A stretch of DNA of 64,000 nucleotides from an uncultured Verrucomicrobiae bacterium. GTDB lineage: Bacteria; Verrucomicrobiota; Verrucomicrobiia; Limisphaerales; Palsa-1400. The notes under the pieces were generated by a model. That model worked only from the letters and a program-made list of their open reading frames with translations. It made no database searches and was not told the DNA's origin. Position numbers and translations under genes: made by a program. The stretch's first letter is position 1. Each line of letters opens with the position of its first letter. Shown one piece after another: positions 3 through 18,272 of the stretch. Location of the stretch: positions 2,528,001 to 2,592,000 of the forward strand of contig CAVXRD010000002.1 in NCBI GenBank assembly GCA_963764165.1, read 5' to 3'.

Positions 3-2135
3 GCCGGCTGCGTTGGCTGCGTCATTGATGAGATGGGTGACATCGCTGTCAATGGCACGGACAGCCGAGGCAATCGGCACGAGTCCTTGGTAGACGGTTC
101 CCACATAAATGGCTGCCGGATAATAGGCGCCATTGGACGATGCATAGAGTGCGCCTCCGTTATATCCGGGAAAACTTAGGAACGAGTCGGCCAGGTAAAC
201 CTCCGCGGCGGCTGAGGGTTGATCGGTGGCTTGGCGGAGGGAATTTGTTTGCGGCAAAATCTCATACATGTACCCATTGGTAATGCCAGGTTCGCCAAAC
301 TGCGACCCGTCCACGGGATAACCCACCAGCATTTTTTCGTTCGTGCTGGTCAGCCAGGGGTTCATTGGCGCGTCCGAAGCAAGATAACTGGTGCAGGCGC
401 TTCCCGCCGTGGACGAAATAAAAAACAAGGCCGCCACATCGAAGTTACGTGATCCCGGACTTGATTGCCCCGGCGCCAGGCCGGCCTGGAGATCGCCGGT
501 TCGTTGCGAAGCATAACCGCTAAGCACATACCAGCCCCGCGCCTGTAACGGGGCCGGCACGGACAGATTCGTCTCCTCCTGGGAAAACCAAGTCGCCTGG
601 CTGGCGTAAGACAACGTCTGATCATTGAACACCACGTCCGCCGCCGTCAAAACCACATTGGGCAGCACGGCCACGCCGCTGCCATAGCCTGCGTCCGTTT
701 GCAACTGCCCGTTGAACGCAAATGGAGCCTCGGCAATCTGGCCTGGGGGCACCGGCTTCGGCAGGCTAAAGTTGGCTGGCAGGTTGCTGGTCGTAACAGC
801 CGGCAGGTAAGTTACCTGCCGCACCGTCGGCGTTCCAGGCGCGACCAGGACGGAAAGATTGGCAGGCGTGGCATAATGGCTGACCGGCGCGAAACCAATG
901 AGATAGGTTCCTGGCGCCAAGCTGGCGCTGTAACCGGATGAAAAGGAAAACAGGTTGGTGGCGCCCACAAGCCCCCAGGCGGCTCCGGCCGGCGGGCTGG
1001 GGACAAAGTTTACCGTCAGCAATCCCATTGTGCTCACGTTAGTGGAGGCTATAATGGGAGAATAACAATTGGTGAGAAGCGTCGTCACCCCGCTGGTGAC
1101 GGCCACCAGTCCCGGATTGGTGGGAGCCAGGTAGCCCGGCGCCGTGCTGAATACCACGGAGTAATCCGCACCAGGAACCAGATTCGAGACGATAGAGCCG
1201 CTATTGCGCCAGGCCCCTTCCCAGGAAAATCGCCACTGTCCATTGGCGGAGGCAGGAAGAAGCGTGACCTGAATGGCGCCGGGCGCGTCCAATGGCACGG
1301 CGGGAAGACCCGCGAAAGAATTGCTCCAGCCCGTTGTTCCAAACAAATAATAGGCCGTTGCGTGATTGTCATCCGTGAAAACAGTCGCATCCGCAGCGGG
1401 CGCGCTGCCCTGAAAATAGACGCCGGACAGGCGGCCGCAGTCTTGGAACGCAGAGTCTCCAATGCTCGTGGCGCTGCTTGAGATCGTGACATTGGTCATG
1501 TTGGTGCAGCGATAAAACGCGTCGGCTCCGATGCTGGTGACGCTGTTGGGGATCACTACGCTGGCCAGGCTGTAACACTCCGTAAATGCATTGTTTCCGA
1601 TGCTGGTAACGCTGCTGGGGATAGTGATGCCGGCCAGGCTGTAGCATTCTGTAAACGCATATTCCTCAATTGTGGTGACGCCGTTGGGAATCGTGACGCT
1701 GACCAGATTGGTGCAGTCCTGAAACGTCAGTGATTGGACGCTGGTTACCAAGCTGGGGATCGCTACGCTGGTCAGACTGGAGCAGGCATAGAACGCAAGG
1801 TCTCCAATGCTGGCGATGCTGTTGGGGATCGTGACATTGGTCAGGCTGGAGCATCCATAAAACGCGTAGCCGCTGATGTTGGTGACGCCGTTCGGGATCG
1901 TGACGCTGGTTAAGCTCGTGTCATCGTAAAACGCATTCGTTCCGATGCTGATTACAGGCATGCCGCTAATGTTGGCTGGAATGACCACGGCCCAGGGAGG
2001 CCCGGCATAACCGGTGATGGTCAGGGTTCTGCCATCGGCGTTTGTCATGTACGTGAATTGGGCTTGCGCTTCCGCCGGCGATGCCAGCAGAAGCAGCAAG
2101 CCAAAAAGAACAAGCCATGTTCTTTTGACAGTCAT
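3..2135 (-). CDS. Secreted BspA-type LRR (LRR_5) surface protein with PEGA-like repeats and a degenerate trypsin-like domain; 3' end runs off the window
   Basis: Translated by hand from ATG at 2135: MTVKRTWLVLFGLLLLLASPAEAQAQFTY (signal peptide), repeats of CxxLTxVTIPNSVTxIGxxAF, then FNGQLQTDAGYGSGVAVLPNVVLTAADVV. Colinear paralog of the 10820 gene. Absent from the ORF track because no stop lies inside the window. Confidence 0.85.
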   Translation of the reverse strand, partial: MTVKRTWLVLFGLLLLLASPAEAQAQFTYMTNADGRTLTITGYAGPPWAVVIPANISGMPVISIGTNAFYDDTSLTSVTIPNGVTNISGYAFYGCSSLTNVTIPNSIASIGDLAFYACSSLTSVAIPSLVTSVQSLTFQDCTNLVSVTIPNGVTTIEEYAFTECYSLAGITIPSSVTSIGNNAFTECYSLASVVIPNSVTSIGADAFYRCTNMTNVTISSSATSIGDSAFQDCGRLSGVYFQGSAPAADATVFTDDNHATAYYLFGTTGWSNSFAGLPAVPLDAPGAIQVTLLPASANGQWRFSWEGAWRNSGSIVSNLVPGADYSVVFSTAPGYLAPTNPGLVAVTSGVTTLLTNCYSPIIASTNVSTMGLLTVNFVPSPPAGAAWGLVGATNLFSFSSGYSASLAPGTYLIGFAPVSHYATPANLSVLVAPGTPTVRQVTYLPAVTTSNLPANFSLPKPVPPGQIAEAPFAFNGQLQTDAGYGSGVAVLPNVVLTAADVVFNDQTLSYASQATWFSQEETNLSVPAPLQARGWYVLSGYASQRTGDLQAGLAPGQSSPGSRNFDVAALFFISSTAGSACTSYLASDAPMNPWLTSTNEKMLVGYPVDGSQFGEPGITNGYMYEILPQTNSLRQATDQPSAAAEVYLADSFLSFPGYNGGALYASSNGAYYPAAIYVGTVYQGLVPIASAVRAIDSDVTHLINDAANAAG

Positions 2136-2148
2136 GCTGCCGTATGTT

Positions 2149-5100
2149 TCACTGGCCCTCGATGAGAAGCAAGCCGCTTTGATTTGTTCCAAGGAAGTAG
2201 CCTTGAGCGCTGGCCTGGCTTTGCAAAATGACGCCGCCGACTTTAATTGTCTTTTTCGAAACGGCCGGATTGGCGAAGCTGCCGCTGATGACTCCCGTCG
2301 TTTTGTTGGTGGTCAATGTCAGCTTGTCCGCGTTTCTTGGCAAGGTTGGGATCGTGATCGTAAGCGGCGGATTGTCGAGCTGCAATTCCACCGTCAGTCC
2401 TGGAGGCAGCTTCTGGCCCCCAAGGTAGTTCTCTCCCACCAGCGTCGCCTCCTGATTGGTGAAGCCCGAACGGCAGACCGCTGTTTTCGACGCATTTGTC
2501 GCATTGATCCAGCTTAGCGGATAAGCACCGGTGATGGTATGATTGGTGAAATAATTCCAGCCCCACAGCGAGCCCTTGCCGCCATACAAATTCACATAGA
2601 AAGGCCACAGTCCTTCTTTTGACACTTTTGTTGATTGGCTGAGGGGGGTGCCATCGGCCAGGCTCCCGGCCAGCGTGATGTTTCCCAAACTGTCCACCTT
2701 CACGGTTCCGTAACTGGCTCCAAAAGGGCCATATAGTGAATCGTTCGTGCCGGGAATGATGAAGGTATACTGGCCTTCAAACAGAGAGGCTTTGTATGAA
2801 CTGCTGAACACGGCCCGATCACCTCTTAATTGGCTGCTGAACTCGGCGTTGCTAATGGCGCCACTGACGGATTGATCGGCAAAATCCAATTGCAGGGCCG
2901 TGGTCAGTGAAGGAATGCCGCCGATTTTCTTTGAAACAATGAGCGCCGCTCCCCCGAGGTCGAACTTGCCTGAAAGGGGCACCTTCTCGCCACTCAAATC
3001 AAGAGTGCCGGAGATGGCGCCGCCGCTGGTCACGCTGAATGAGAACGAGCCTGAGTTGGACTGCTCCCGCATGGAGCTTTCCGGGGCAAAGAGACCTCGG
3101 TAGGTTCCCTCCGCTTCAAGGAAAACATTGGTCGCGAAATTGGCCACCACGACGAGGTTGGACGCCATGGTAAACTTGTAAACAGGGCTGGTGCTCAGCA
3201 TCGAGTAGGGCGGGTTGGTTCCACCCACCCAGCCGATGAAGACGTTCCTGGCCTTGGCTCCGGCGGTGACTGTGTATTTGGTTCCGATCTTCAGCTTCTT
3301 GGACCACGTTGCGTGCTGGATGGTGCCCGATCCGTTGGTCAGAAGCACCAGTTCGGCGCTCGGGGCGTTGGACGTGTAGATGCCGCTAGCCAGGGCCGTC
3401 ACGCCGTCGGTGATCGTGACCACTTGGTTCGACGGCGCATCCCAATTGGAAACGGAGGTAAACGACAATGTGTGGCTGCCCGCCGCCAAATTGGCCACGG
3501 TCGCCCCGCTGGTCTGATTGGGTCCTCCATCCACCTGCCATTGAGCTGCGCTGCGCAGAGCGGCTGGGAGCAGATCGACAGTCAAGGCACCCGAGGTGGA
3601 CGTCCCTATCAACGTGTAAAGGACGTTGGTTGGCGTGTTCACACCGCTGGTGATCGTAACCGTTTGATCCGCAGGAATATTCCATCCGGCAATGGGTTTG
3701 AATGAAACAGAGTGCGTTCCCGGCGGCACATTCGCCATCACGGCGCCGTTGGTTTGCCATGGACCAGCGCCATCCAGTTGCCACTCGGCCCCGGCGGCGA
3801 CTGCGGCGTCTGGCAGCAGAGTAACCGTCAGACTGCCCAGCCCTCCCGACGTCAAGGTGGTATTAGAGGCGGTGCCGGAGATTTTAACCCTCAGCCCGCA
3901 TGGATTGCCCCCATCCGGCTGCGAATTATAGACAATGAAATCCAGCGTATTGGTTCCAGCGACAAAATTGCTGGATATGACATACGGTCCAAACCAGGTT
4001 TCGAAGTCCGAAGGGGCCGGAAAATTCGATATCGAGCTTATCCCATTTACTAATACATCCTCAAGTTGGTTATCAGCGATAGCTTGAAAGGTAATTTCGG
4101 CAGTGGCCGGATCGAATCCAGTAAGATCAAACGTCGTCCGAAAGTCATATGAGCCCATAGGATCCTGGCTCTCGAAGCCATAACTCGGCTGAGGGGTGAC
4201 CCAGAGTGAATACGAGTCATCATTGAGCCAGCCGCCGTCTCCGACGGGGTAACCATTTGTCTCGACCGCGTAAGCCGCGAAGGGCGTTGCCGCAGTGCCG
4301 TCGGGGGCGGAAATGATAACGTAATGCGGATCTTGGGTTCCTGTGGGCAACGGATTAAATTGGTCGTCCAGCCCTGTGCTGTAGATCGTGAAGTTCGTCA
4401 GGCCGGATTCCGTCGTGAAGATTGAGCTGGGTTCGAGCACCACCACTTGGCCCGCGCCGCTTCCGGGCGCCAGCGCAACGATGATGTCCAGGCGTCCGTC
4501 CTGGTTTAGGTCGTCGACCACCACATTCTGGATGGTTTGAGCGCCGAAATCATTCTCCCAAAGGACTTGAGTTAAAGCGCCATTGAGGATGACCAATGTG
4601 TCATTCCCGCTGGTCGGCTGATACACCGCCAGAACTTGCTGGGCGCCAGTTCCAGCCAGATCCGCCACCGCCACTGGAATGAAAAGTCCGCTGGCGCGGC
4701 TGTAGCTTGCTGTGGCCGTCAAATTTGAACCGAAGGCGAGCAGAAAAGGCGACGTGCCTTCATAAGAAGCCACAACGATCTCATCCCCAGGCACACCGTC
4801 CAAGTCGCCGAAGGCTGCGTTATCAATGTCAATGTAATGGCCCAAATTGAATTCGGCCATCTCCGCGCCATTGGTGGGATTCAACATTTGAAGGCCACCG
4901 TAACCATAGTCGCCCAGGCTCCAGCCGTGTTCCGACGTCGTCGCCACAATCTCGCGTGTTCCGTCCCCGTTCAAGTCGGGCAGATACACTCCGGAATCAA
5001 GAAATCCGCCGGAAGCGTAAGATTGCAGCCAGTTTAGCGCACCCGTGGCGGGCGCATAACTCCAGGTGTAATTGGCATTATCAACTGTGCCGTCCGCGCC

Positions 5101-5799
5101 CACGTTGTCGTTGGCCGGTCCCCACGCGGCTGCCAGCAGGTTGCTGTTGCCGCCGGCGTTGGCCCACCGCACACCGTTGGGAGCCGGGCCAATGACATTG
5201 CGCCAGATACTTTGTCCGGTGGCGTAGCTTGTCAGTTCAAATCCTCGCACGCCGCCATCGTCCACTCCGTATCCGCTCGTCAGTTGCGAGACAATCTCCA
5301 CCTGCCCGGTTCCTTCCAAGTCGGCTGCGAACATGGGAGTTACTGTTTGGTCGCCTTGCCCCGTCCCTGCCACCACGATCGTTTTCAGCAAGGTGCCGTC
5401 GGCTTGATAGACAAGAATGTCAAAATTGTAATTGGTGTCCATTTGCACTGCCAGAATCTCGAGCACGCCGTCCAGGTTAACGTCAGCCAGGCAGGCCAAG
5501 GTCGCACCGGTGGCAATGAAATCCAATTCCGTTCCGATGCCGTCAAATACGCCGATGCCGCCAGGTACGCTGGCCACCAATTGAGACGTTCCGCTGCCCA
5601 GCACATCACCCGTCAGCGGCAGACTCGCCCCTGCCAGCGACCATGCGTTCGTGTAGGTGCTGACGTTCACGCGGCTGCTGGAGTAGCCGCCATTGCGGGA
5701 GCCATAAACGTCCTTGTCGCGCATCGGCCATTGGGCCTGCACCGCTGCCGGTGCGGCTAGGATTAGACTGCTTAAAAGGAGGAAGAGTGTTCGTTTCAT
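2149..5799 (-). CDS. Secreted FG-GAP/VCBS beta-propeller protein with PEGA-like repeats and a conserved beta-rich C-terminal domain
   Basis: Signal peptide MKRTLFLLLSSLILAAPAAVQA; repeated ADVNLDGVLEI/DLNGDGTREI/DLDGVPGDEI/DLNQDGRLDI motifs; two GxLTVxLLPxA..AxWQxDG repeats. Start moved to ATG 5799. Confidence 0.8.
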   Translation of the reverse strand: MKRTLFLLLSSLILAAPAAVQAQWPMRDKDVYGSRNGGYSSSRVNVSTYTNAWSLAGASLPLTGDVLGSGTSQLVASVPGGIGVFDGIGTELDFIATGATLACLADVNLDGVLEILAVQMDTNYNFDILVYQADGTLLKTIVVAGTGQGDQTVTPMFAADLEGTGQVEIVSQLTSGYGVDDGGVRGFELTSYATGQSIWRNVIGPAPNGVRWANAGGNSNLLAAAWGPANDNVGADGTVDNANYTWSYAPATGALNWLQSYASGGFLDSGVYLPDLNGDGTREIVATTSEHGWSLGDYGYGGLQMLNPTNGAEMAEFNLGHYIDIDNAAFGDLDGVPGDEIVVASYEGTSPFLLAFGSNLTATASYSRASGLFIPVAVADLAGTGAQQVLAVYQPTSGNDTLVILNGALTQVLWENDFGAQTIQNVVVDDLNQDGRLDIIVALAPGSGAGQVVVLEPSSIFTTESGLTNFTIYSTGLDDQFNPLPTGTQDPHYVIISAPDGTAATPFAAYAVETNGYPVGDGGWLNDDSYSLWVTPQPSYGFESQDPMGSYDFRTTFDLTGFDPATAEITFQAIADNQLEDVLVNGISSISNFPAPSDFETWFGPYVISSNFVAGTNTLDFIVYNSQPDGGNPCGLRVKISGTASNTTLTSGGLGSLTVTLLPDAAVAAGAEWQLDGAGPWQTNGAVMANVPPGTHSVSFKPIAGWNIPADQTVTITSGVNTPTNVLYTLIGTSTSGALTVDLLPAALRSAAQWQVDGGPNQTSGATVANLAAGSHTLSFTSVSNWDAPSNQVVTITDGVTALASGIYTSNAPSAELVLLTNGSGTIQHATWSKKLKIGTKYTVTAGAKARNVFIGWVGGTNPPYSMLSTSPVYKFTMASNLVVVANFATNVFLEAEGTYRGLFAPESSMREQSNSGSFSFSVTSGGAISGTLDLSGEKVPLSGKFDLGGAALIVSKKIGGIPSLTTALQLDFADQSVSGAISNAEFSSQLRGDRAVFSSSYKASLFEGQYTFIIPGTNDSLYGPFGASYGTVKVDSLGNITLAGSLADGTPLSQSTKVSKEGLWPFYVNLYGGKGSLWGWNYFTNHTITGAYPLSWINATNASKTAVCRSGFTNQEATLVGENYLGGQKLPPGLTVELQLDNPPLTITIPTLPRNADKLTLTTNKTTGVISGSFANPAVSKKTIKVGGVILQSQASAQGYFLGTNQSGLLLIEGQ

Positions 5800-6042
5800 A
5801 GCTATAAATACGGCTGATTTTCCAGAATCTGACAAAAATCTGCCACTGGCCCGCCATCGCCCACGCAACCCGCCTATGCTGTAGCTTTCGATTGCGGAGA
5901 AGCGGCAATCAATAAAAAGTGCGTGCTGTCATACATATGCGCGGAGGACCGCAAGCGCAAGACAATTCGCTTCCCCTGGCGCAAAAAGCTTGCACACTGC
6001 CACCCCCATGCTAATCATCTATCAAGCAAACCGGAACGGGAT

Positions 6043-7185
6043 ATGATGTCGCCACGAATAAATCCAAAATGGCTGTGGTTGGGCTTGGCTGGCTTGGCTC
6101 TTATCCTGGCGCTTGCTATCCACCGCCCGATTCAAACCAAGCCGGATGCTGGTCCGTCCCAGTCTTCCGCATCGGGGCAAAATTTCCCTCAAACCACGGT
6201 GTCTCTGGCGCCGCATGTTTCCGTTCTGCAAGCTGCTTGTGACGCGTTGCGCTCGGCTTCCAATGCCGCCAACACACGACAACAATTGGCGGCGCTGCGC
6301 CAGTCGCTGGGCGCCATGCCTGTCAAAGAAGCGGTGGCTACCATCAAGCAGTTTCTGGATTCCAAGTCGGACGCGCCGACCCATCTCGGTTTCAGGCTCG
6401 CGTCCGGCGGTTTGCTGGACGAAGCGCCAACACTCCGAACCTTTTTGCTGGATGAATGGTCCCGGCTCGATCCCGCCACCGCCGCCGAGTATTCGAAAAT
6501 CATCCTGGCTGGCATGGATTCCGCCGATGAATGGGCGGTGGCCTTGCGCAATCTGGCCTCGGGTGACGCCAGCGCCGATGGCCGCGCGCTTCTGGAGCAA
6601 AAAATAGCCCTGATGCTGCAATATGCGCCATGGCAGCAAAATCCATCGACCGGTTATCTGGAGGCATTCGATGTGCCGGTTTATTTGGGCGGGACGGGTT
6701 TCGTGCCAACGCTGTCGGGCCTGGTGCAAAGCCAGGACAATTCCGCCGTGGCGCACGCCGCCTTCCTGGCGCTGGACCGATTGGTCATCAACAACCCGGC
6801 GACAGTGCTGCAGGCGCTGGAAGCTCAGCCGGGTTTGATGACGGGCCGGGAATCGACGCGGGCGGACTACTTCGCCCGCGCGGACGTGCGGGATCCGCAA
6901 CAGCAGCAAATCCTGCAAAGCTACCTGCTCAACCCCTCCATTAGCGCGGCGGAGCTGCAAACGTTTGCCGGCATCTATCCCAACGCCAATTTCATGATCT
7001 CGCCCAACCTTCTCACTCAGGCGGCCACCCCCGACCATGACTCATTGATGAGCCGCGACGCGGAATCGCTGGCCGTTGCGCAGCAGTGGCTGGGCGATTC
7101 GCGTTTTGCCAATGTGGCTCCCGAGTTGCGGACGATCATTCAGCGGCTGCAGGGATTCGCGGCGCAGGCGCAGCAGCGGCCGTGA
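6043..7185 (+). CDS. N-terminally membrane-anchored, alpha-helical (HEAT-like) periplasmic protein of unknown function
   Basis: Hydrophobic KWLWLGLAGLALILALAIH, Pro/Ser linker, then Ala/Leu-rich helical sequence; first gene of the rightward operon. Confidence 0.7.
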   Translation: MMSPRINPKWLWLGLAGLALILALAIHRPIQTKPDAGPSQSSASGQNFPQTTVSLAPHVSVLQAACDALRSASNAANTRQQLAALRQSLGAMPVKEAVATIKQFLDSKSDAPTHLGFRLASGGLLDEAPTLRTFLLDEWSRLDPATAAEYSKIILAGMDSADEWAVALRNLASGDASADGRALLEQKIALMLQYAPWQQNPSTGYLEAFDVPVYLGGTGFVPTLSGLVQSQDNSAVAHAAFLALDRLVINNPATVLQALEAQPGLMTGRESTRADYFARADVRDPQQQQILQSYLLNPSISAAELQTFAGIYPNANFMISPNLLTQAATPDHDSLMSRDAESLAVAQQWLGDSRFANVAPELRTIIQRLQGFAAQAQQRP

Positions 7186-7278
7186 GCCCTGTTTAAGGCG
7201 AACTCCAGGTCAAGACGGATTCCGCGCGGCCTCTCTTTCAGAGCCTCTACGGAGGCGGTGTGTTGGCGACTTGAAACT

Positions 7279-10200
7279 ATGTGGCGAACCATTATTGTCA
7301 CCCTGTTTTGCGCGTTTGAACTGCCGGCGCAAACAACCAATCTGGCGGCGCTCGCCAAGGGGCAGGCGCTCGTGCTGTTTGTGGAAAACCGCGCGGAGGT
7401 GCTGCGCAGCGGCGCCACCTCATGGGATCCGGCCACCACCAACGCCCCGTATAATATTCTCAAGCACGGGGATCAGCTGCGCACCCAGACTAACAGCAGG
7501 GCTGTCATCTGGTATCCCGATGGCAGAGGCGCAGTCACCTTGGGGCAGTCAACCCGTGTCCAGCTTCCGCTTGACTCGGAGGATGAGTCCACCCTTCAGA
7601 TTTGGCTGGGCAAGGTGTTCAATTTTCATCGCGGCCCGCCCGGCAAGCTGCGCTTTAATACGCCCACCACCCCCGCCATTGTTCGCGGCACGGAGTTTGT
7701 GCTGCAAGTGGACGCCGACAGCACGAGCATCACCGTTTTCAATGGTGAAGTGGATATGGAAAACAAGTGGGGGCAGTTGACTCTTGCCAGCGGCCAGTCC
7801 GGCGTGGCCCGGCTCGGAGCGCCTCCGGCCCGCACTGCCGTAGTCGCGACGATGGATTTGATTCAGTGGTGCATGTATTATCCGGGGGTGCTGTGCCTGG
7901 ACGACGTGGCCCCGGGCGGATTGGGCGGCGACTTGCAGGACTCGGTGAATGCCTATCGCAGTGGCAACCTTATTGAAGCTCTCAAGCTATGGCCGGCCCA
8001 ACGGGTTCCAGTATCAGACGATGAACGCGTCTATAAAGCGGCTTTGTTGCTGAGTGTTGGAAACGTCGACGGAGCATGGGACTTGCTGGCTGGGTTGAGC
8101 CCTGGCACATCCGCCCCAGGGGAAGGGGCTGCGCCGCGCAGGCTGGGCCGCGCGCTGGAACGGTTTGTCACGCTGGTCAAAACCAACAACATAGCCACTC
8201 TGGCTGGCGCGGACACCAGCCATTTTTGTGCGACGGAGTGGCTGGTTGAATCTTACTATTTGCAGGCGCAATTCCGTTTGGAGGCGGCCCGGGAGGCGGC
8301 CCGCCAGGCGGTGGCGCGCGCGCCTGACTTTGCCTTTGCGTGGGAGCGCTTGGCTGAATTGGAGTTCGGATTTGGGCGTGTCAACCAATCGCAGGAGGAT
8401 TTGGCCAGGAGCTTGGAGCTGGCGCCGCGAAATGCCCAGGCGGTCGCCTTGCGCGGCTTTCTTCTGTCCGCGCAGAATCGAATCAAGCCAGCCATCGCTG
8501 AGTTTGATCGCGCCATTTCCCTGGATGGCAGTCTTGGCAATGCCTGGCTTGGGCGCGGCTTGTGCTGGATTCGCCTGGGGCGGACGAGCCAGGGCCTCGA
8601 CGATATTGAAGTGGCGGCTGCCGTGGAACCGCAACGGGCTTTGTTCCGCAGTTACTTGGGCAAGGCGTTTAGCCAGGCGGGGCTGGATGAAAAAGCCACA
8701 AAGGAGCTAAAGCTGGCCCGAGAATTCGATCCTCGCGATCCAACGGCGCGGCTCTACTCGGCGCTGCTGGAACAGCAGGAGAATCAAATCAACACTGCCA
8801 TTTCAGATCTGCAGTCCGCCGAGGCCGATAATACAAACCGCAGCGTGTTCCGCTCGCGTCTGCTGCTGGACCAGGATCACGCCGTGACCAGCGCCAACCT
8901 GGCTTCCGTTTACCGCGACGCAGGCATGACCGATGTCAGCGTCCGGGAAGCGGCACGGGCGGTCAACGACGATTACGGCAACGCCGCCGCGCATTTGTTC
9001 CTATCCGACAGCTACTACTCACTGCTTGATCCCACGCAGTTCAACCTGCGTTACGACACGGTTTGGTTTAACGAATTGCTCCTGGCCAACATTCTGGCTC
9101 CTGTGGGCTCCGGGCGCCTTTCCCAGCAAGTCTCGCAACAGGATTACTCCAAGCTATTCGAGGCAGATGGCCTGGGCGTGGCAAATTCAACCGACATCCG
9201 GACTGACGGGATGATCCGCCAGACAGCATCCCAGTTCGGCGCCTACGGCGATACTGGCTACGGTTTTGACCTCGACTACACCCATAACAACGGTTTTCGA
9301 GTGAATAACACTTTGGATAATCTCAGCATGGACGCGACACTCAAGCAGCAAGTCGGGCCGCATGACACCGCCATGCTGCTGGTGGAATACGAAAATTTCC
9401 ATTCCGGCGATAATAATCAGTATTACTACCAAAGCGATGCCCTGCCCTATTACAGCTTCGCCGAGCAGCAGCAGCCCGAGCTGGTCGGCACATGGCATCA
9501 CGAGTGGGCGCCCGGCATGCATACGCTGCTTCTTCTAGGCAGGCTGGTGGACGACCAGCAATTTGCTGATAGAGCGGCGCCGCAACTGAAACTCGACGAG
9601 AGCGGCGGCGTTATTTCCGGGGGATCCGGTGCCGATGCATTCGACGCGCGCTACCGGGAAACATTTGAAATTTATTCAGCCGAACTGAACCAAATTTGCC
9701 AATGGGACAGAGTCACCCTGTCGGCCGGCGGGCGTTACCAATCAGGCGAGTTCCGCACGCAAGATCAGTATGCGAATCCATCAAGCAACCTGGCTATTTT
9801 ATTCGCGCCGTCTTACAGCGGCAATACGGTTGGTCTTTTCCAGCGAGCCACAGCTTATTCCTATCTCACCGTCCAGCCGGTGGAGCATCTGTGGCTTACC
9901 GGCGGATTGGCGGCTGACGCCGAAAAATTCCCCGACACCTTTCGCAATCCGCCCGTCAGCTCAGGCGAAGACAGCCGCTCTCAACTCGGTCCCAAAGCCG
10001 CCCTGGTCTGGAGTCCTGCTCCGGAAGCGACCGTGCGCGGGATCTACACCCGGTCGCTCGGCGGCGCCAGTCTGGACGAAAGCTACCGCCTGGAGCCGAC
10101 CGAATTGGCGGGCTTTCCGCAAGCCTTCCGCAGCCTTATTCCCGAGTCGGCCCAAGGCGTCGCTTCCCAATCGGCCCCGACCTTGGAAACCATGGGCGGG

Positions 10201-10806
10201 GCTCTCGATCTTAAATTTGGCGGCCGCACCTATTTGGGATTCCAGGCCGAGCGCCTGGCCTCGCGGGTGAATCAAGGCCAGGGCGATTTCGTCGTGAGCG
10301 AGGACAGCTCGGGCGATATTGAGGGGCCAGCCGCGGTTTCCTCCACGCCGGAACAATTCAATTACGTCGAGCACGACGGTTCAGTCAGCCTCAACCAGCT
10401 TCTGGGCGGCGGATTCGCTCTCGGCGCCGCCTATAAAGTCACCCAATCCGACCTTCACCAAATGTATCCCGCCATTCCGGCTTTTGTCATCGCGCCCAAC
10501 CACTTTCAATCGACCCTGCAGGAAATTGACAATTACATCCTGTTCAACGACCGCTCTGGCTTCTATTGCAAGTTCGACGCGCATTGGTATGGCCAGAAGA
10601 ATTCCGGCTGGACGCCCATGGAGCCATACTCCAGTTTCTTCCAGGAAAACATCTACGCCGGCTACCGTTTTCTGCACCGCCGGGCCGAATTGCAGCTGGG
10701 CATCCTCAACCTTGCCGGCGGCGGCTACAATCTAAACCCGCTGACCGCCTATCAGGAATTGCCCATGAAGCGGGTGTTTGAAGCAAGGTTTAACTTCATT
10801 TTCTAA
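7279..10806 (+). CDS. Outer-membrane protein: FecR-like domain + TPR repeats + TonB-receptor-like beta-barrel
   Basis: Signal peptide; FecR motifs GDQLRT, TPTTPAIVRGTEF, VFNGEV; TPRs (AWERLAELEFGFG, AWLGRGLC, RSYLGKAF); amphipathic strands; C-terminal Phe (FEARFNFIF). Confidence 0.8.
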   Translation: MWRTIIVTLFCAFELPAQTTNLAALAKGQALVLFVENRAEVLRSGATSWDPATTNAPYNILKHGDQLRTQTNSRAVIWYPDGRGAVTLGQSTRVQLPLDSEDESTLQIWLGKVFNFHRGPPGKLRFNTPTTPAIVRGTEFVLQVDADSTSITVFNGEVDMENKWGQLTLASGQSGVARLGAPPARTAVVATMDLIQWCMYYPGVLCLDDVAPGGLGGDLQDSVNAYRSGNLIEALKLWPAQRVPVSDDERVYKAALLLSVGNVDGAWDLLAGLSPGTSAPGEGAAPRRLGRALERFVTLVKTNNIATLAGADTSHFCATEWLVESYYLQAQFRLEAAREAARQAVARAPDFAFAWERLAELEFGFGRVNQSQEDLARSLELAPRNAQAVALRGFLLSAQNRIKPAIAEFDRAISLDGSLGNAWLGRGLCWIRLGRTSQGLDDIEVAAAVEPQRALFRSYLGKAFSQAGLDEKATKELKLAREFDPRDPTARLYSALLEQQENQINTAISDLQSAEADNTNRSVFRSRLLLDQDHAVTSANLASVYRDAGMTDVSVREAARAVNDDYGNAAAHLFLSDSYYSLLDPTQFNLRYDTVWFNELLLANILAPVGSGRLSQQVSQQDYSKLFEADGLGVANSTDIRTDGMIRQTASQFGAYGDTGYGFDLDYTHNNGFRVNNTLDNLSMDATLKQQVGPHDTAMLLVEYENFHSGDNNQYYYQSDALPYYSFAEQQQPELVGTWHHEWAPGMHTLLLLGRLVDDQQFADRAAPQLKLDESGGVISGGSGADAFDARYRETFEIYSAELNQICQWDRVTLSAGGRYQSGEFRTQDQYANPSSNLAILFAPSYSGNTVGLFQRATAYSYLTVQPVEHLWLTGGLAADAEKFPDTFRNPPVSSGEDSRSQLGPKAALVWSPAPEATVRGIYTRSLGGASLDESYRLEPTELAGFPQAFRSLIPESAQGVASQSAPTLETMGGALDLKFGGRTYLGFQAERLASRVNQGQGDFVVSEDSSGDIEGPAAVSSTPEQFNYVEHDGSVSLNQLLGGGFALGAAYKVTQSDLHQMYPAIPAFVIAPNHFQSTLQEIDNYILFNDRSGFYCKFDAHWYGQKNSGWTPMEPYSSFFQENIYAGYRFLHRRAELQLGILNLAGGGYNLNPLTAYQELPMKRVFEARFNFIF

Positions 10807-10819
10807 ACTGCTTGTATCA

Positions 10820-13800
10820 ATGAAAAAAACGTGGCTCGTCATTTTTTGTTTGTTGCTGTTGGGCGTTTCAGCGCCGGCACAAGGTCAATTTACATATACC
10901 AACAGCCACGGCACTCTTGTCATCACGGGTTATAGCGGGCCGGGCGGCGCGGTGAACATTCCAGCCACCATCAATGATCTAAAGGTCACCAGCATCGGAG
11001 ATTACGCATTCGCAGGCACAGATCTAAGCAGCATCGGCATTCCTGACAGTGTCACCAACATCGGTGACGGCGCGTTCAATTACTGCACGAACTTGGCGAG
11101 TATCACGGTTCCCGGCAGTGTCGTCAAATTTGGAGAAGGTGTCTTCAACTCTTGTTCGCGGCTGGCAAGCGCGACGCTCGAAGACGGAATTGTCGATATA
11201 GGAACAAACGAATTCCAAGATTGCGCAAGCCTAGTCTATATTAGCATTCCCAACAGCGTCACCAAAATCGACGATAACGCCTTCTATTCCTGCAGCAGCC
11301 TGACCAATATCGTGATTTCATCCAGAGTCGTCAGTATCGGAGGTTACGCGTTCTCCGAATGCATCAATCTGACGAGTATTGACATCCCGAGCGGCGTCAC
11401 CAAAATTGGGGAATTCTGCTTCGATGGCTGCACAAATCTCGGAGCGATTATTGTCAGCTCAAACAACCCCTCCTACGCCAGTGAGGCAGGTGTGTTATTT
11501 AACCATAAAAAGACCACTCTTGTAGGGTATCCGCAGGGAAAACCCGGGGCCTCCTACACTATACCCAGCACCGTCTCAAGTATCGGGGATTATGGGTTCT
11601 ATTCTTGTGCGCAGCTTGCCAACGTGGCGATCCCCGATAGTGTCACCAGCATTGGAAAAAGCGCATTCGGCTTCTGCACGAACCTGTCCACCATCACGAT
11701 TCCGGGCAAGGTGGCCAGAATTGGGGAAGCAGCATTCAACGACTGCTCGCAATTGGAAACTGTAACGCTCGAAAACGGTATCAAAGATATCGGAATGAAT
11801 GCGTTCCAAGACTGTATTAGCCTGACCAACGTCAGCATTCCCGGCAGCGTCACCAACATTGAGGACGGCGCGTTCAATGACTGCGCGAACCTGTCCAACA
11901 TGGCGATTCCGGGAAAGGTCGCCAGAATTGGGGAGGCTGCGTTCTACGACTGCACGCGATTGGCAGTTTTGACGCTCGAAGACGGTATCAAAGATATCGG
12001 AACGAATGCGTTCCAAGACTGTATTAGCCTGACCAACCTCAGCATTCCCGGCAGCGTCGCCAGCATCGGGGACTCCGCATTTGAAGGTTGTTCGGGCTTG
12101 ACCAGCGTTGCTATTCCTAACGGCGTCGTCAGCATTGGAAGCTTAGCGTTCTCGGAAACCAGCTTGACCAACGTCACGATTCCTGCCAGCTTAACCAACA
12201 TGGCTGGGTCACCCTTTGCCTACTGCCCAGGCCTGGCTGCCATCGTTGTGGATTCAAACAGCCGCGCCTATACAAACGTCGGAGGGGTTTTGTTTAACAG
12301 AAGCCAAACCGTCCTTGTCGGATTCCCCGAGGGTTATGCCGCGGTTTCCTACGTTATCCCTAACAGCGTGGCTAGCATCGGACCGTGGGCGTTCGGCGGC
12401 TGCAGCGGCTTAACGAACGTTTCAATCCCAGATACTGTCACCGGCATCGGGTATGGAGCATTCGCTGGTTGCAGTGGATTGACCAGTGTTTACATCCCAG
12501 ATAGTGTCACTGCAGTCGGATGGGGCGCGTTTGAAGACTGCACCAGCCTTTCAAGTGTCTCGATAGGCAATGGCGTTGAAATCATCGCGGATGCTACGTT
12601 TGAAGACTGCGGCAGCCTTACCAACGTTACAATCGGGAGCGGCGTTCAATTCCTCGACCCAGATGCATTTTTAGAATGCTTTAACTTGAGATATGTTCTT
12701 TTCGAGGGCAATGCCCCCCGCATCGGACCAGGTATATATGAACCGCACTGGGACGAGGAGTTGACGTTTTATTATCTGGCTGGTGCTAGCGGTTGGGATT
12801 CCAGTTACTACGATTACTATTACTATTACTATGGCATTCGGATTCAAATGTTGACCGCACACGGTCAGATCGAGGTCACTCTGCTGCCATCTTCCGCCAA
12901 CGGCCGGTGGCGGTTTCCTTGGGAGACGACTTGGCGGAACAGCGGCACGGCGGCGTCGAATCTGAACGCAGGCGAGTACCCCATTGTGTTTAGCACGGTG
13001 CCGGGTTACTTGACTCCCACTCTTCCATCGCCAGGATATGTGGCGGTCATTGGGGGCACCACCTTTGTCACCAATCAGTACTCTCCGGCCACTTCCTCAA
13101 GCAACGTCAACAACGTGGGAGCGCTCACGGTTAACTTTGTGCAATCCCCTCCCGCGGAGGCCGCATGGGGCGTGGCGGGCGGCCCCGCGCCGTCTTTCAC
13201 TTCCGGCTACAGAGTCAACCTGGCCGCTGGCAAGTATCTCATCGATTTCGCATCCGTCCCCGGTTATGCCACTCCCGCTGCCATATCAGTTCTGGTTGTG
13301 CCAGATTATCCTGCTGTGCTGTCGGTCAGTTACGCGCCTGTTATTCCGTTGTCCAACCTGCCGTCCAGCTTCACCAGCTTGCCAGTGCAGGTTCCTCCCA
13401 GCGAGATCAGCACGTCTCCTTTTGAGTTCAATGGCCAATTGCAAACAGATGTTGGGTACGGAAGCGGTGTGGCTGTGGAAGCGAACGTGGTGCTGACGGC
13501 TGCGGATTTGGTGTTCAACGACCAGACTTTGTCGTACGCAAGCCAGGCCACCTGGTTTCCCCAACAGGAAACAGGTGTGACTCCGCCCTACCCGATGACG
13601 GCGCGGGGCTGGTATGTGCTCAGCGGGTATGCCAGTAACCGAATCAACGATCTTCAAGATGGCTTGGCCCCAGGGCAGTCGAGTCCAGCGTCACGGAACT
13701 CTGACGTTGCAGCGTTGTTCTTTACGTCGCCGGTTGCGGGAGGGAATTCGGCGAGTTATCTATTTTCAGACGGGACGCCGAATGTGTGGTTGACCAGCCC

Positions 13801-14512
13801 GACAAATAAAATGATGGTGGGTTATCCTGTGGACGGGTCGCAGTTTGGCGTTATCAATATTACAAATGGCGAGATGTATGAGAACTCGCCGCAGACGAAT
13901 GCTTTGAATTGGGCCACCGATGAACCATTGGCCTACGATCAGGTTTACTTGGGAGACTGGTTTTTGGGTTATCAGGGGAACGCCGGGAGTCCATTCTATG
14001 TGGAGTCCAACGGTGTTTTTTGCCCGGCTGGCGTCTATTTGGGCACGGTGTCCGATGGGCTTCTGCCATACGCATCTGCTGTGCGAGCCATCGATAGCAC
14101 TGTCGTGGAATTGATCGATTATGCAGCGGAAGCCGGTGAGGGGCGGATTATTGCCAACGACGCGAACGGCTTGGACATGCCAGCGACGGGAGGGGACGGC
14201 AACGGGAGGCGAGACTCGCCTGCAGGGGGCACTACCCCGCTGGAGATCACTCCCAGTACAGTCAGCGCGAACAATCCAGGTTACGTGCAGATACAACTGC
14301 AACCGGCCTCGGCTGTCCTTGCGGGGGCCGGTTGGCGGATTCACGGTGAGTCCAGCTATCACAGTTCGGATGCCGTGAAGCAGGTGAATTCGTCCAACAT
14401 TGTGGCCATCCAGTTTGCGCCGGTAAGCGGGTATAGTCCTCCCCGCCATTCAGACCGTCACCGTGGTGCCGAATCAGGTTTCGACTTACGTTGGGGCCTA
14501 CATTTTGACTAA
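10820..14512 (+). CDS. Secreted BspA-type LRR protein with PEGA-like repeats and a degenerate trypsin-like domain; N-terminal part of a frameshifted gene 10820..15785
   Basis: Signal peptide MKKTWLVIFCLLLLGVSAPAQG; many IPxSVTxIGxxAFxxCxxL repeats; GSGVAVEANVVLTAAD and QGNAGSP. Homology breaks at ~14440 and resumes in the next frame. Confidence 0.85.
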   Translation: MKKTWLVIFCLLLLGVSAPAQGQFTYTNSHGTLVITGYSGPGGAVNIPATINDLKVTSIGDYAFAGTDLSSIGIPDSVTNIGDGAFNYCTNLASITVPGSVVKFGEGVFNSCSRLASATLEDGIVDIGTNEFQDCASLVYISIPNSVTKIDDNAFYSCSSLTNIVISSRVVSIGGYAFSECINLTSIDIPSGVTKIGEFCFDGCTNLGAIIVSSNNPSYASEAGVLFNHKKTTLVGYPQGKPGASYTIPSTVSSIGDYGFYSCAQLANVAIPDSVTSIGKSAFGFCTNLSTITIPGKVARIGEAAFNDCSQLETVTLENGIKDIGMNAFQDCISLTNVSIPGSVTNIEDGAFNDCANLSNMAIPGKVARIGEAAFYDCTRLAVLTLEDGIKDIGTNAFQDCISLTNLSIPGSVASIGDSAFEGCSGLTSVAIPNGVVSIGSLAFSETSLTNVTIPASLTNMAGSPFAYCPGLAAIVVDSNSRAYTNVGGVLFNRSQTVLVGFPEGYAAVSYVIPNSVASIGPWAFGGCSGLTNVSIPDTVTGIGYGAFAGCSGLTSVYIPDSVTAVGWGAFEDCTSLSSVSIGNGVEIIADATFEDCGSLTNVTIGSGVQFLDPDAFLECFNLRYVLFEGNAPRIGPGIYEPHWDEELTFYYLAGASGWDSSYYDYYYYYYGIRIQMLTAHGQIEVTLLPSSANGRWRFPWETTWRNSGTAASNLNAGEYPIVFSTVPGYLTPTLPSPGYVAVIGGTTFVTNQYSPATSSSNVNNVGALTVNFVQSPPAEAAWGVAGGPAPSFTSGYRVNLAAGKYLIDFASVPGYATPAAISVLVVPDYPAVLSVSYAPVIPLSNLPSSFTSLPVQVPPSEISTSPFEFNGQLQTDVGYGSGVAVEANVVLTAADLVFNDQTLSYASQATWFPQQETGVTPPYPMTARGWYVLSGYASNRINDLQDGLAPGQSSPASRNSDVAALFFTSPVAGGNSASYLFSDGTPNVWLTSPTNKMMVGYPVDGSQFGVINITNGEMYENSPQTNALNWATDEPLAYDQVYLGDWFLGYQGNAGSPFYVESNGVFCPAGVYLGTVSDGLLPYASAVRAIDSTVVELIDYAAEAGEGRIIANDANGLDMPATGGDGNGRRDSPAGGTTPLEITPSTVSANNPGYVQIQLQPASAVLAGAGWRIHGESSYHSSDAVKQVNSSNIVAIQFAPVSGYSPPRHSDRHRGAESGFDLRWGLHFD
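11702..12060 (+). repeat. Intragenic tandem duplication of a 207-bp (three-LRR) block
   Basis: ccgggcaaggtggccagaattgggg at 11702 recurs as ccgggaaaggtcgccagaattgggg at 11909; acggtatcaaagatatcggaa and gcgttccaagactgtattagcctgaccaac are repeated at the same 207-bp offset. Confidence 0.85.
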
Positions 14513-15785
14513 CTCTAATTCTTTGCCAGCGGATTCCGCTTTGGCGGTCTTGATCAACGGCGTCGGCAAAATCACCAGTGCCGGCGGCGCAACCAACATG
14601 GCACGTTTGAAGCTCGGCAAGAGCTACGCCATCACCGCGTCCGAGTTGCCCGGACGCAACTGGATCTTCGCCAATTGGAGCAGCGGCACAAACATCGCCG
14701 ATCTGGCTTTGTATTCTACAAAGCCGGCGACGTCCTTCACCTTTTCCAGCAATTTGATTCTGGTGGCCAATTTTCAAACGAATCCCTTCCCCTCCATGGC
14801 CGGTGTTTACAATGGTCTTTTTGCCACCACAAATGGAGTGACGGAACAAACGGCAGGGATGCTTCACGGGCTGACTGTCAGCGGGAGCGGAACTTACAGT
14901 GGGACGCTCTTGATCAACGGAAAAGGCCACTCTTTCAGCGGCGCGTTTGATTTGGGCGGCCAGGCGAGCAATGTTATTTCACGCGCGATCAACCAACCTC
15001 TGACGGTTGCCATGACACTTTTGAATTTGAACCAGTCTTCCCCAGAGATAATCGGCACTGTGTCCGGAACCAGTAATGGTGTCGCTTGGGTTGCCGCTCT
15101 TTTAGCCGACCGAGCCTATCACAGTAAATCCTCGGCGGCGTACACCATGCTGATCCCGCCAGGCTCCAGCAGTGCGTCAGCCACAGTCCCTATTGGTGAC
15201 GGTTATGCCTTGATCACGAATCACGCTGGCACGGCTACCATTGCCGGCGCACTGGCCGATGGCGCCAAAATCATCCAGTCCGTTGCAGTTTCCCAGACGG
15301 GCAATGTTCCAATCTACGCCAACCTATCTGGCCAGCCGGGCCTTCTCATGGGCTGGATTAATCTGGACTCCGCCAGCGATGCCGGGGCGGGGCTGGCCTG
15401 GGTTCATCCCTCCGTCCCCAAAGGCCTATTCCCAGACGCGTTCACTAGCACCAACCCCATCGCGCTGTCTCTGTGGACCAAGACTCAGGCAATCGACGTC
15501 CTCGAACACCTGACAAATTTGTCGATTCTTGAACCGACCCATGGCGCTACTATCGAGACAAACAGCTTCGAGATAGCGATCGGCAACAATTTCAAATTGG
15601 GCAAGCTATCCGGCCCGGCCAAATTGAGTGGTTCACTCGCCTCCAAAACGGGATTGCTCAGAGTGACCAATGTCAGCGGGTCGGTCAAAGTGACCGGCCA
15701 AGGGGTGGTGCTGCTCAATACCACAAACGGCGGCGGATATATCCTGACCAAGGCCAACGCCCAAGCCATCCAGCTTGGACCATAA
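14463..15785 (+). CDS. C-terminal part of the frameshifted LRR surface protein (B-repeat-like module + conserved C-terminal domain)
   Basis: No signal peptide; colinear with the last ~400 aa of the 2149..5799 product (LKLGKSYAITA/LKIGTKYTVTA, AGVYNGLF/EGTYRGLF, AGALADG/AGSLADG, KTGLL/TTGVI). Confidence 0.75.
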   Translation: MVPNQVSTYVGAYILTNSNSLPADSALAVLINGVGKITSAGGATNMARLKLGKSYAITASELPGRNWIFANWSSGTNIADLALYSTKPATSFTFSSNLILVANFQTNPFPSMAGVYNGLFATTNGVTEQTAGMLHGLTVSGSGTYSGTLLINGKGHSFSGAFDLGGQASNVISRAINQPLTVAMTLLNLNQSSPEIIGTVSGTSNGVAWVAALLADRAYHSKSSAAYTMLIPPGSSSASATVPIGDGYALITNHAGTATIAGALADGAKIIQSVAVSQTGNVPIYANLSGQPGLLMGWINLDSASDAGAGLAWVHPSVPKGLFPDAFTSTNPIALSLWTKTQAIDVLEHLTNLSILEPTHGATIETNSFEIAIGNNFKLGKLSGPAKLSGSLASKTGLLRVTNVSGSVKVTGQGVVLLNTTNGGGYILTKANAQAIQLGP

Positions 15786-15888: not shown

Positions 15889-16305
15889 TCAGCCCTTTCT
15901 GGAGCAAAACAGCGCAGGAATGTGCAGGACAATGGCGGCCGCCAGCACTAACGCGCTGTAACGGTGCGTCAAATAGAGAAAATGCTCGCCCGATGTTCCA
16001 AAAAGGGGCGTCATCGGCACGACGCCGGAAAGCATAACTGCCAATCCGCTCAGCAGAATGATCCAAAGCAGAAACTTGGCGGGGCCGATGAGTGGCGAAA
16101 CCGCGCCGTATCGGCAAACATCCGACCACGTTAGCGCGACGGCTGCCAGACCAAGCGCGAACAGCGGCGCCACCGCCACATGGGCCATCAAAACCCAATG
16201 GGTCATCGGCGGTTTGCCGAAAAAAAAGGTGCCGATTCCCGTGAACGCAAGAAAAAGCGCCGACGCCGCCAGCACCGCATAAAAGAATTTTGCGGACGCG
16301 CGCAT
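15889..16305 (-). CDS. Four-helix membrane protein, cytochrome b-like
   Basis: Four hydrophobic helices with His in LMAHV, LTHRY and VLHI; ATG overlaps the TGA of the upstream cytochrome gene. Confidence 0.6.
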   Translation of the reverse strand: MRASAKFFYAVLAASALFLAFTGIGTFFFGKPPMTHWVLMAHVAVAPLFALGLAAVALTWSDVCRYGAVSPLIGPAKFLLWIILLSGLAVMLSGVVPMTPLFGTSGEHFLYLTHRYSALVLAAAIVLHIPALFCSRKG

Positions 16306-18272
16306 CAGGGCCGCTCCTTCTTCGCGGATGACGCCTGCGCCGCCATTGCGCCCAATCCGCGCAATCCGAAGTTCAACAGCACACCCAGAACCACGAGAGC
16401 CGCGCCAAAGACAATCCATTTTAGCATGGGGCGAAAAATGAAGGTGTAGGCGAATAATGAGGCCGCTTTCTTGTCATCGCCGCGAAATTCCCAGTTGGCT
16501 TTTGTGATCGCATTGGTGGGATCGACCGGGCCGCGGGCGGTGATGGCGGCGAAATAGATGGGGGAATCTTTCGCGTGGCAATCGGCGCAGCCTCGCGCCC
16601 CGAGCGCTTTCGCTCTCGGCCGGACGTCATGCGCGAGCGCCCACGAGTAGGGCTGGGCGGCAGGGGATTCCGCAGAGACGAGCGCGCCGTGTTCGAGCCG
16701 ATACATCTTGCCAGACGCGATGTAAGCGGCTTCGCTTTTGGAATCTGGCGCCAACGATTCGAGGCCCTTTTGAATTTGCGCGGCGGTCAGTGGCTTTGTG
16801 TTGTACGGATCCACTCCGGCTTCGGCAGTCGAGGGGCGCGGCAGGCTGACAATTTTTGCAACTTCTGACGGAAGCATCGGCGTGACATTGGTGCCGCTGA
16901 CCCGAGCCCAATAGCTTGGCCAGACCATTTTATATGGGCCAATTTTTCCGTCCGGGCCTCGCAGAAAAATGGATTCCACGATGACCGGCGCGGTGTTCTT
17001 TCCGCGTTCCGGCGCGGGCAAGCCGAGCTTGTGGGCCATGGAGGTTTGGACTTCGACGGGCTCCGATTCGGGCAGCGGCCCGGAATGGCAGGCGGTGCAA
17101 GTGAGACGGTCGAAATGGACCGGCGGCATACCCTTATGCACTAATTTGGGGGCACCGAGCCGGCCCTCAGTGTGGCAGCCGCGGCAGGTTAGAGTCTCGA
17201 CTTTGCTGGTTTCGGCCTCAAGTTGCTGGTGGGCCAGCTTTTTCGCCTCGGGCTCTTTCAAAGTCAAATCATCGCGGCGAAGGAGGGCGGCGCGGAGGCT
17301 GACCATTGAATCACTGACCACACGGTCTTTGGCTTCGCCTTCGTATCCCCGCACGATGGCATGATCCAGGCCGTTGCGATGACAATCGACGCATAGCAGC
17401 CCCGCCTTGATGTGGACATCCAAATCCGAATGCCAGCCCGCATCGCCAGACGGCGAAACGCTCGTGTGACAATAATAACAATTATTGACGGACATCCGGT
17501 TGGCGACTTGAAAGACGACGTTGTTCTCCGTGTCAAAGCGGGCGCGGTTGTACTTGATGGCGGGCAAGGTCGAAGGCACCGGCTTGCCTGGGCTCCAGGA
17601 ATCCGCGATTGCCCCGGCGCTCTTGAAGCTGGCGAAGACTCCAAGATTTGCGCCCACGGTTGGCGCCCAGCGAAAATCCTGCGCCTTAAGGGCATTGAAG
17701 CGGCCCTCCTGGTCGTAGCGGCCGGACGTTTGGTGGCATAGGAAACAATCGATTTCCAATTTCCCGGTAATGTTCATGCGTCCCATTTCCGGGTCGCTGG
17801 GCTTGATTTTGTCGGGTTCCCCCACTCCGCCTCCTGGCAAATGGCGGGCGAAATTGGTGATGAACTGATAGTCGCTCAGGCCGATTTGCGACGGTTTGAA
17901 AGTTCCGGCCCAGCCGCGGTAAGAGAGCGGAATTTGGGTGTGCGTTTGCGGGTCGGTCAGGATCCATGGCTCACCGGGACGGCCCGGTTTGCCGCCGTTG
18001 TCAGCATTGAAATGCCAGCCCTCGCTGATGGTGTCGTAGTCGTGGCATTTGCCGCACGTCTGGGCGGGTGAGTAGGGGGGGGCTTTTGGCTCCTGCGATT
18101 TCCCATCCTCGCCCACGACGGGCGGAATGCTGATGACTTTTCCCAGGGAGTCGTGCAGCGGAATATTGTGCAGAAATGGGGTTCGGCTTCCCGTGTGGAC
18201 GTCTTCCGCTCGCGCGGAATGGCGTCCCAAGAATAAGCCGCAAACCAAAACGACTGGCAATAGAAACCGCAC
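16305..18272 (-). CDS. Multiheme c-type cytochrome (7 CxxCH) with C-terminal membrane anchor
   Basis: CGKCH, CFLCH, CYYCH, CVDCH, CRGCH, CTACH, CADCH; signal peptide from GTG 18272 (start uncertain); C-terminal TM WIVFGAALVVLGVLL. Confidence 0.85.
   Translation of the reverse strand: MRFLLPVVLVCGLFLGRHSARAEDVHTGSRTPFLHNIPLHDSLGKVISIPPVVGEDGKSQEPKAPPYSPAQTCGKCHDYDTISEGWHFNADNGGKPGRPGEPWILTDPQTHTQIPLSYRGWAGTFKPSQIGLSDYQFITNFARHLPGGGVGEPDKIKPSDPEMGRMNITGKLEIDCFLCHQTSGRYDQEGRFNALKAQDFRWAPTVGANLGVFASFKSAGAIADSWSPGKPVPSTLPAIKYNRARFDTENNVVFQVANRMSVNNCYYCHTSVSPSGDAGWHSDLDVHIKAGLLCVDCHRNGLDHAIVRGYEGEAKDRVVSDSMVSLRAALLRRDDLTLKEPEAKKLAHQQLEAETSKVETLTCRGCHTEGRLGAPKLVHKGMPPVHFDRLTCTACHSGPLPESEPVEVQTSMAHKLGLPAPERGKNTAPVIVESIFLRGPDGKIGPYKMVWPSYWARVSGTNVTPMLPSEVAKIVSLPRPSTAEAGVDPYNTKPLTAAQIQKGLESLAPDSKSEAAYIASGKMYRLEHGALVSAESPAAQPYSWALAHDVRPRAKALGARGCADCHAKDSPIYFAAITARGPVDPTNAITKANWEFRGDDKKAASLFAYTFIFRPMLKWIVFGAALVVLGVLLNFGLRGLGAMAAQASSAKKERP

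Follow-up and report, generated by a model that had tools for sequence, protein, structure and literature searches.

A putative chaperone of a modular secreted S1 protease encoded beside a proposed NsrA-like receptor relay in Verrucomicrobiota

Introduction

In Sinorhizobium meliloti, an outer-membrane barrel protein of ~1200 amino acids (aa), NsrA, works with the CHASE2 receptors CyaK, CyaD1 and CyaD2, and it is reported to pass a protein signal to CHASE2 cyclases (PMC7529298, PMC13001267), with a barrel range of 600-1200 (PMC7529298). CHASE2 cyclases are also reported to cluster with FecR and TPR genes elsewhere (PMC9239204, PMC5498481). Secreted enzymes, in turn, may have dedicated helpers: in the Lif/LipB-lipase and CpaB-CpaA pairs, a protein with a single N-terminal anchor and a periplasmic domain binds its client and is encoded beside the enzyme (PMC4713064, PMC7046727, PMC13381987), and in Slam (type XI) systems TPR and an outer-membrane barrel are found beside secreted proteins (PMC8406197). 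Here, we analyse a locus with features of all of these in a stretch of 64,000 nucleotides, hereafter the window (G000:C2:2528001-2592000), from a 7.0 Mb, 97% complete genome (G000) of an uncultured Verrucomicrobiae bacterium. The locus encodes an unnamed helical protein whose gene starts at position 6043 (the 6043 protein), an NsrA-like protein with FecR, TPR and barrel regions, and three modular secreted proteins; the two with a leucine-rich repeat (LRR) head both contain a trypsin-like (S1) domain that the initial annotation of this DNA had missed.

The comparison brings out several differences. The output here is a Ser/Thr kinase with an extracytoplasmic function (ECF) sigma factor, and a secreted protease and its anchored partner are co-encoded, unlike in the NsrA system. 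The 6043 protein resembles Lif and CpaB in its single N-terminal anchor, periplasmic domain, gene position and predicted client binding, but shares no sequence family with them, is HEAT-like, and would have as its client an S1 protease domain within modular proteins. The Slam barrel has 14 strands, whereas the barrel here has 22, is without DUF560/PF04575, and comes with an extra FecR domain and a CHASE2 partner. TonB-dependent transporters have a 22-strand barrel in common with it, but here there is no beta plug, and FecR and TPR regions are fused N-terminally.

We propose, with a probability of about 60%, that the locus joins two modules: a protease with the anchored, chaperone-like 6043 protein, and an NsrA-like receptor with a CHASE2 kinase and an ECF sigma factor. 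The protease would cross the inner membrane by Sec, be folded or held in the periplasm by the 6043 protein, and exit by a general pathway through an interchangeable C-terminal domain rather than through the barrel; in relatives with an intact active site, it may then cut itself at an Asn-x-Ser/Thr-Gly-Gly-Gly linker. The barrel protein would relay a surface signal to the CHASE2 kinase and the ECF sigma factor encoded to the left of the window, and the receptor subfamily in question may sense the protease or its products, or switch the protease gene on. The kinds of component are known; what is new is that a modular secreted S1 protease has a chaperone-like partner of an undescribed family, and that within one order the two are linked with an NsrA-type relay. 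In the literature covered, which includes few subscription journals, neither the 6043 family nor the module was found to be described.

The secreted protease and its partner

The secreted neighbours have in common their stalk domains and a domain of 240 aa that carries trypsin-type motifs, the latter being the conserved element. The heads vary, with NHL, RCC1, LRR, DUF5122, Ig and Calx-beta types among the 25 scanned, and the protease-bearing modular proteins range from 350 to 4300 aa. The LRR or FG-GAP heads or stalks, previously taken as the conserved feature of the cargo, were not supported as such; the FG-GAP marker occurs in G000 alone among loci L033-L101. Pfam Trypsin_2 matches 13 of 15 aligned homologs (best E 3e-6, mostly below the curated cut-off), the domain of the right window copy itself gives no Trypsin_2 match, and the nearest solved sequence is a glutamyl endopeptidase (1P3C), a weak match with E 0.028. 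The His-Asp-Ser motifs are those of glutamyl endopeptidase and other trypsin-like S1 proteases, and the triad is intact in 41/47 homologs, but here the domain is embedded between stalks behind the variable heads, and the two window copies read Asp-Asp-Ala and Asp-Asp-Asn. Judged by these residues, both window proteases are catalytically dead, that is, pseudo-enzymes, and the right one keeps the face predicted to bind the 6043 protein.

Behind the protease domain, the Asn-x-Ser/Thr-Gly-Gly-Gly linker was found in 31 of 36 intact copies and in one of five with a broken triad, counted over the 41 rows that the pattern could place. Because the motif tracks intact triads, it suggests a candidate self-cleavage site in the intact relatives. 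A related observation concerns proteases that end in the ~340-aa C-terminal domain discussed below: the triad is broken in 4/5 of them (L033/L044, L132, L125, two window genes) compared with 2/42 of the others, and the combination has two separate origins on a quick protease tree.

The 6043 protein matches no Pfam or NCBIfam family, and a family search of it and 11 homologs gave no lipase chaperone or SRPBCC domain. It is present in a single copy in the genome and belongs to a family of 842 clusters at 50% identity, which is HEAT-like according to the Atlas features of a homolog. No solved relative was found by sequence (best E 0.054). A hydrophobic N-terminal stretch runs across the alignment, from which alone a putative anchor is read.

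The partner and the protease have identical distributions, 9 of 41 genomes. In a sample of 251 genomes of the order (Limisphaerales), 18 have both, 5 the protease only, 6 the partner only and 222 neither. When the six genomes known to have contributed to the alignments are left out, the counts become 12, 5, 6 and 222, respectively, with the proviso that four source loci lacked a genome handle and their genomes may also sit in the sample; in 9 of these 12 genomes the two genes lie on one contig within about 15 kb. A recheck of five partner-only genomes revealed one split protease gene beside the partner, and a recheck of the five protease-only genomes revealed one weak partner match. In a separate sample of 250 genomes of the phylum, the partner was found in 6 and the protease in 5, and all five protease-positive genomes have the partner, adjacent in three of them. 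One open reading frame in the database (P0189) even fuses a 6043-type partner with the protease, possibly as an artefact. In 5/6 copies from outside the order, the signal peptide leads directly into the protease, and the absence of a pro-region fits a foldase acting in trans.

For the window protease domain and residues 60-380 of the 6043 protein, a complex was predicted with an interface score (ipSAE) of 0.90, and the highest-scoring of three controls gave 0.00; this mark is reached by 116/157 solved and 2/215 mismatched pairs, a calibration only roughly valid for the alignments made here. At least 83% of contacts are shared between runs, and the predicted local distance difference test score (pLDDT) of the partner is at least 92. 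In the model, segment 314-322 of the 6043 protein pairs with protease residues 64-67 and buries the invariant Tyr71. Based on the co-occurrence, the adjacency and this strong predicted complex, the suggestion that the 6043 protein is a periplasmic chaperone or adaptor gains support, and it is likely, as far as the model tells, the dedicated periplasmic folding chaperone of the protease.

The same interface bears on a different role. Besides the parts mentioned, it includes the loop after the catalytic His (32-43) and residues by the catalytic Asp (102-104), which flank the cleft in the trypsin-like fold, so that the 6043 protein could be a periplasmic inhibitor, allosteric activator or tether that times cutting by the protease, the receptor relay remaining as proposed; the persistence of the pair where the triad is dead would also agree with this. 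However, the region of the catalytic Ser (187-190) lies outside the interface, and the single N-terminal anchor, the adjacency to the client and the lack of a pro-region match the Lif/CpaB class, both of which argue against these roles. We consider such a role unlikely and retain the folding chaperone.

The barrel protein and the proposed CHASE2 relay

The FecR-TPR-barrel architecture annotated on 7279-10806 was recovered with Pfam, by matches to FecR (E 8.6e-10) and TPR and by weak matches to TonB-receptor barrels. The protein is encoded once in the genome; strong homologs of the barrel occur in 29/40 relatives and in 133/251 genomes of the order. A model based on a 60-row alignment (pLDDT 87.3, predicted TM-score 0.84) has a FecR beta region, helices at 191-606 and then 22 strands (631-1174), and its best Foldseek matches are the TonB-dependent transporters FrpB, PqqU and OprC (E 1e-14, TM about 0.5 by target). 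Since no match to the plug family (PF07715) was obtained at E<=0.1 and residues 191-606 are helical instead, a canonical plugged transporter, the case that the initial annotation had named as speaking against its export hypothesis, was rejected. PF04575 (DUF560) was likewise unmatched on the barrel protein at E<=0.1 and gave nothing in the genome, though the control genomes also gave none; together with the 22 strands, this argues against the membership in Slam/type XI that had been considered.

With hhalign, the barrel family was aligned to a 1190-aa FecR-TPR-barrel protein from the S. meliloti megaplasmid over 987 columns (20% identity, probability 99.7), and the barrel half alone shows a weak similarity (E 1.8e-5, in a single comparison). 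From its size, its place and the barrel range of 600-1200, the S. meliloti protein is probably NsrA.

Genes for a CHASE2-Ser/Thr kinase and an ECF sigma factor are located at G000:C2:2523428-2526300, that is, 1.7-4.6 kb left of window base 1, and converge on the left LRR gene. The earlier statement that no CHASE2 gene is present thus holds for the window itself, but not as an absence, since the gene lies just past the left edge. CHASE2 was seen at 37 of 59 aligned barrel loci, and at 18 of the 25 uncut by contig or region ends (barrels of 1140-1300 aa were counted; split or partial ones were excluded), fused to a cyclase, kinase, TIR or histidine kinase. CHASE2-TIR fusions stand beside close barrel homologs at L033:14880-16493, L110:9470-11128 and L042, with a possible NADase-type output of the relay. 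Other barrel clades have accessory genes of their own: an Ig-domain, lipoprotein-like protein of ~240-260 aa in kinase/ECF loci (L059, L070, L085, L092; cluster c11), and an unnamed 188-aa membrane protein in the cyclase loci of another clade (L068-L090, cluster c5). The genome has two more CHASE2 genes, at G000:C2:2142652-2143389 and 3559555-3560748, and its only barrel could serve these as well.

In the barrel tree, neither protease nor partner is in view for any row of a 36-row clade (support 100), and 21 of the 24 other rows have them; of the three exceptions, a contig end or a protease 16 kb away accounts for two. The tree thus supports the specific link of one barrel subfamily to neighbouring secreted proteins that had been proposed, and a functional tie of receptor and protease, with the latter as signal source or regulated output, would be the simplest reading. 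Alternatively, the protease pair and the receptor-CHASE2 relay could be separate modules, brought side by side in a single event and co-inherited since then without functional coupling, as each module is also found without the other. However, the linkage is kept across at least 10 families despite shuffled order, orientation, heads and CHASE2 outputs, and several such loci occur in some genomes, which makes independence very improbable.

The export route

A C-terminal domain of ~340 aa is common to all three secreted proteins of the locus. It occurs on 25 proteins of the genome, only three of them near the sole barrel, and in 24/24 family genomes, with 6-25 matches per genome on diverse secreted proteins; six genomes lacking the barrel have it, and it was not found in three having the barrel. 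Cargo of Slam systems has an eight-stranded barrel at its C-terminus; the single-sequence model of the domain here is of low confidence (pLDDT 31.8), and its only Atlas match is an unnamed Verrucomicrobiota cluster. A general role in sorting or anchoring is likely. In most homologous proteases, the C-terminus is formed by another domain, of 70 aa, which is also present at the end of the window gene 20972-22738; the ~340-aa domain, swappable with it, may be the sorting signal for an unknown export route in Verrucomicrobiota.

The initial annotation had the barrel export the cargo. In this view, a dedicated exporter or display platform would receive cargo handed by the 6043 protein to its TPR domain, and one barrel subfamily is indeed retained with the pair, the barrel is wide and without a beta plug, and the protease-positive genomes of the order sample all have a barrel, except G115. 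However, all five genomes outside the order that carry the 6043 protein and the protease, each 96-100% complete, gave no barrel match (in a search that lacked a positive control), and neither CHASE2 nor a barrel was found beside the pair in them. Most barrels, moreover, accompany CHASE2 without a protease, and the five secretins of the genome offer an alternative; PorV of type IX secretion was not found there, with a positive control. Because the pair exists without the barrel and the C-terminal domains are interchangeable and genome-wide, including in barrel-less genomes, sequence comparison makes export by a general route likely, and export by the barrel improbable.

Several points weigh against the two-module proposal. 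On the side of the pair, 11 of 29 positive genomes held one member alone; the P0189 fusion is known from one record, in which the partner is clipped and the tail looks frameshifted, and no longer 6043 forms were recovered in a search, although it was a weak search that missed P0189 too. Conservation is not significantly higher in the interface columns than elsewhere (0.61 vs 0.62; 0.54 vs 0.49, p 0.07), and the predicted binding is a matter of model confidence, which fits a chaperone, inhibitor, activator or tether alike. The correlation of linker and triad comes from about three independent losses, partly related. On the side of the receptor, the link to the protease comes from gene order and the barrel tree; the loci near the pair had been fetched on purpose, which inflates the 21/24, and the absence in the 36-row clade is the fairer half of that comparison. 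In addition, the S. meliloti record of 1190 aa carries no NsrA label.

Organization and decay of the locus

The features of the locus are listed in Table 1. The divergent layout described initially, with the FG-GAP gene reading leftwards from ATG 5799 and the helical gene rightwards from ATG 6043, is as stated, both 13-bp gaps are present (10807-10819 and 2136-2148), and the outer genes are both LRR (LRR_5) and the gene at 2149-5799 FG-GAP by Pfam. As to the PEGA-like stalks that had been ascribed to the three secreted proteins, the sharing was recovered (tblastn E about 1e-6 to the FG-GAP stalk), but the PEGA label was not, and PEGA identity was rejected, as none of 19 stalk segments matches PEGA at E<=1. 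The FG-GAP protein has no protease domain and is not conserved at related loci; it is likely a passenger. Scans for sigma-70 promoters and terminators of the locus stayed at chance level.

Table 1. Features of the locus in the window (positions from the first base of the window).
Feature	Position	Strand	Description
Left secreted protein	3..2135, ATG 2135	-	Signal peptide, BspA-type LRR head, two stalk domains (from 1280)
Left secreted protein, trypsin-like domain	725-9	-	Catalytic positions His to Asp, Ser to Asn
Secreted FG-GAP protein, 1216 aa	2149..5799, ATG 5799	-	FG-GAP head
FG-GAP protein, two stalk domains	3846-3361	-	Followed by Flg_new_2 repeat
FG-GAP protein, ~340-aa C-terminal domain	3144-2152	-	
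6043 protein, 380 aa, unnamed	6043..7185, ATG 6043	+	N-terminal hydrophobic anchor, Pro/Ser/Thr linker, HEAT-like helical domain (aa ~60-380)
NsrA-like outer-membrane protein, 1175 aa	7279..10806	+	FecR (aa ~30-186), TPR helices (191-606), 22-strand barrel (631-1174)
Right secreted protein, 1230 aa as assembled	10820..14512, ATG 10820	+	Signal peptide, long BspA-type LRR head
Right secreted protein, after head		+	Two stalk domains (from 12863), protease-like domain, linker, third stalk domain; frame lost near 14440
Right secreted protein, trypsin-like (S1) domain	13418..14134	+	His position Asp (13505-13507), Asp kept (13703-13705), Ser position Ala (13982-13984)
Right secreted protein, out-of-frame tail	14463..15785	+	Flg_new-like repeat and ~340-aa C-terminal domain (14748-15785)

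Three genes of this locus are broken. The frame at 14463-15785 is no separate gene, but continues the right LRR gene after a frameshift; the relative L033 holds the whole protein in one intact frame of 1397 aa. The left LRR gene extends beyond the window and loses its frame near G000:C2:2527640, just before its Flg_new-like and C-terminal domains and within about 16 codons of the point at which the right gene is broken. The CHASE2-kinase gene is split by a frameshift inside CHASE2. A scan for split genes gave, elsewhere in the genome, 6 splits at 241 places that matched a reference (about 294 kb intact), compared with 54 in a control copy with one deletion per 6 kb; it caught both cargo breaks and missed the CHASE2 break. 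With three breaks over about 20 kb of coding sequence, the locus exceeds this rate (Poisson p 0.008, post hoc). Decay is thus likelier than assembly error, and the locus is probably decaying in this genome. The coincidence of the breaks at window 14440 and at G000:C2:2527640, each immediately ahead of the C-terminal domain, could reflect selection to drop the domain, a hotspot or an error. The window copy is consequently a poor test subject, and the intact loci L036, L040 and L102-L103 are better suited.

Neighbouring features

Directly after the locus, a multiheme cytochrome c and a small cytochrome b-like membrane protein are encoded on the minus strand (window 15889-18356); they were not seen to recur as neighbours. 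Further to the right, window 40745-44753 has a low GC content (45-47%) and carries an AbiEii-like AAA ATPase, DUF4276 and a DDE transposase. To the left of the window, L001:1-8437 (G000:C2:2508001-2516437) contains a type VI secretion-like cluster with a Clp ATPase, VgrG, a pesticin-like lysozyme, a weak Ntox46 match and DUF6931.

Implications

A tentative extension of the proposal, with the odds against it but worth stating, is that the locus forms a protease-gated surface sensor. The chaperoned protease with its swappable head would release itself at the Gly-rich linker or cut a captured target, and the product would be the ligand of the 22-strand FecR-TPR receptor that drives the CHASE2 kinase, cyclase or TIR. 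If this is true, an NsrA-type receptor would for the first time have a genetically encoded source of its ligand.

The two-module proposal itself supplies a small set of parts, namely the protease domain, its partner, the receptor and the CHASE2 output, which are open to tests in vitro or in a heterologous host. It would give a large unnamed family a specific predicted partner and, likely, a new structural class of membrane-anchored chaperones of S1 proteases, and it would connect the NsrA/CHASE2 receptors, for which the ligands and the mechanism of signalling across the envelope are largely open, with a secreted protease.

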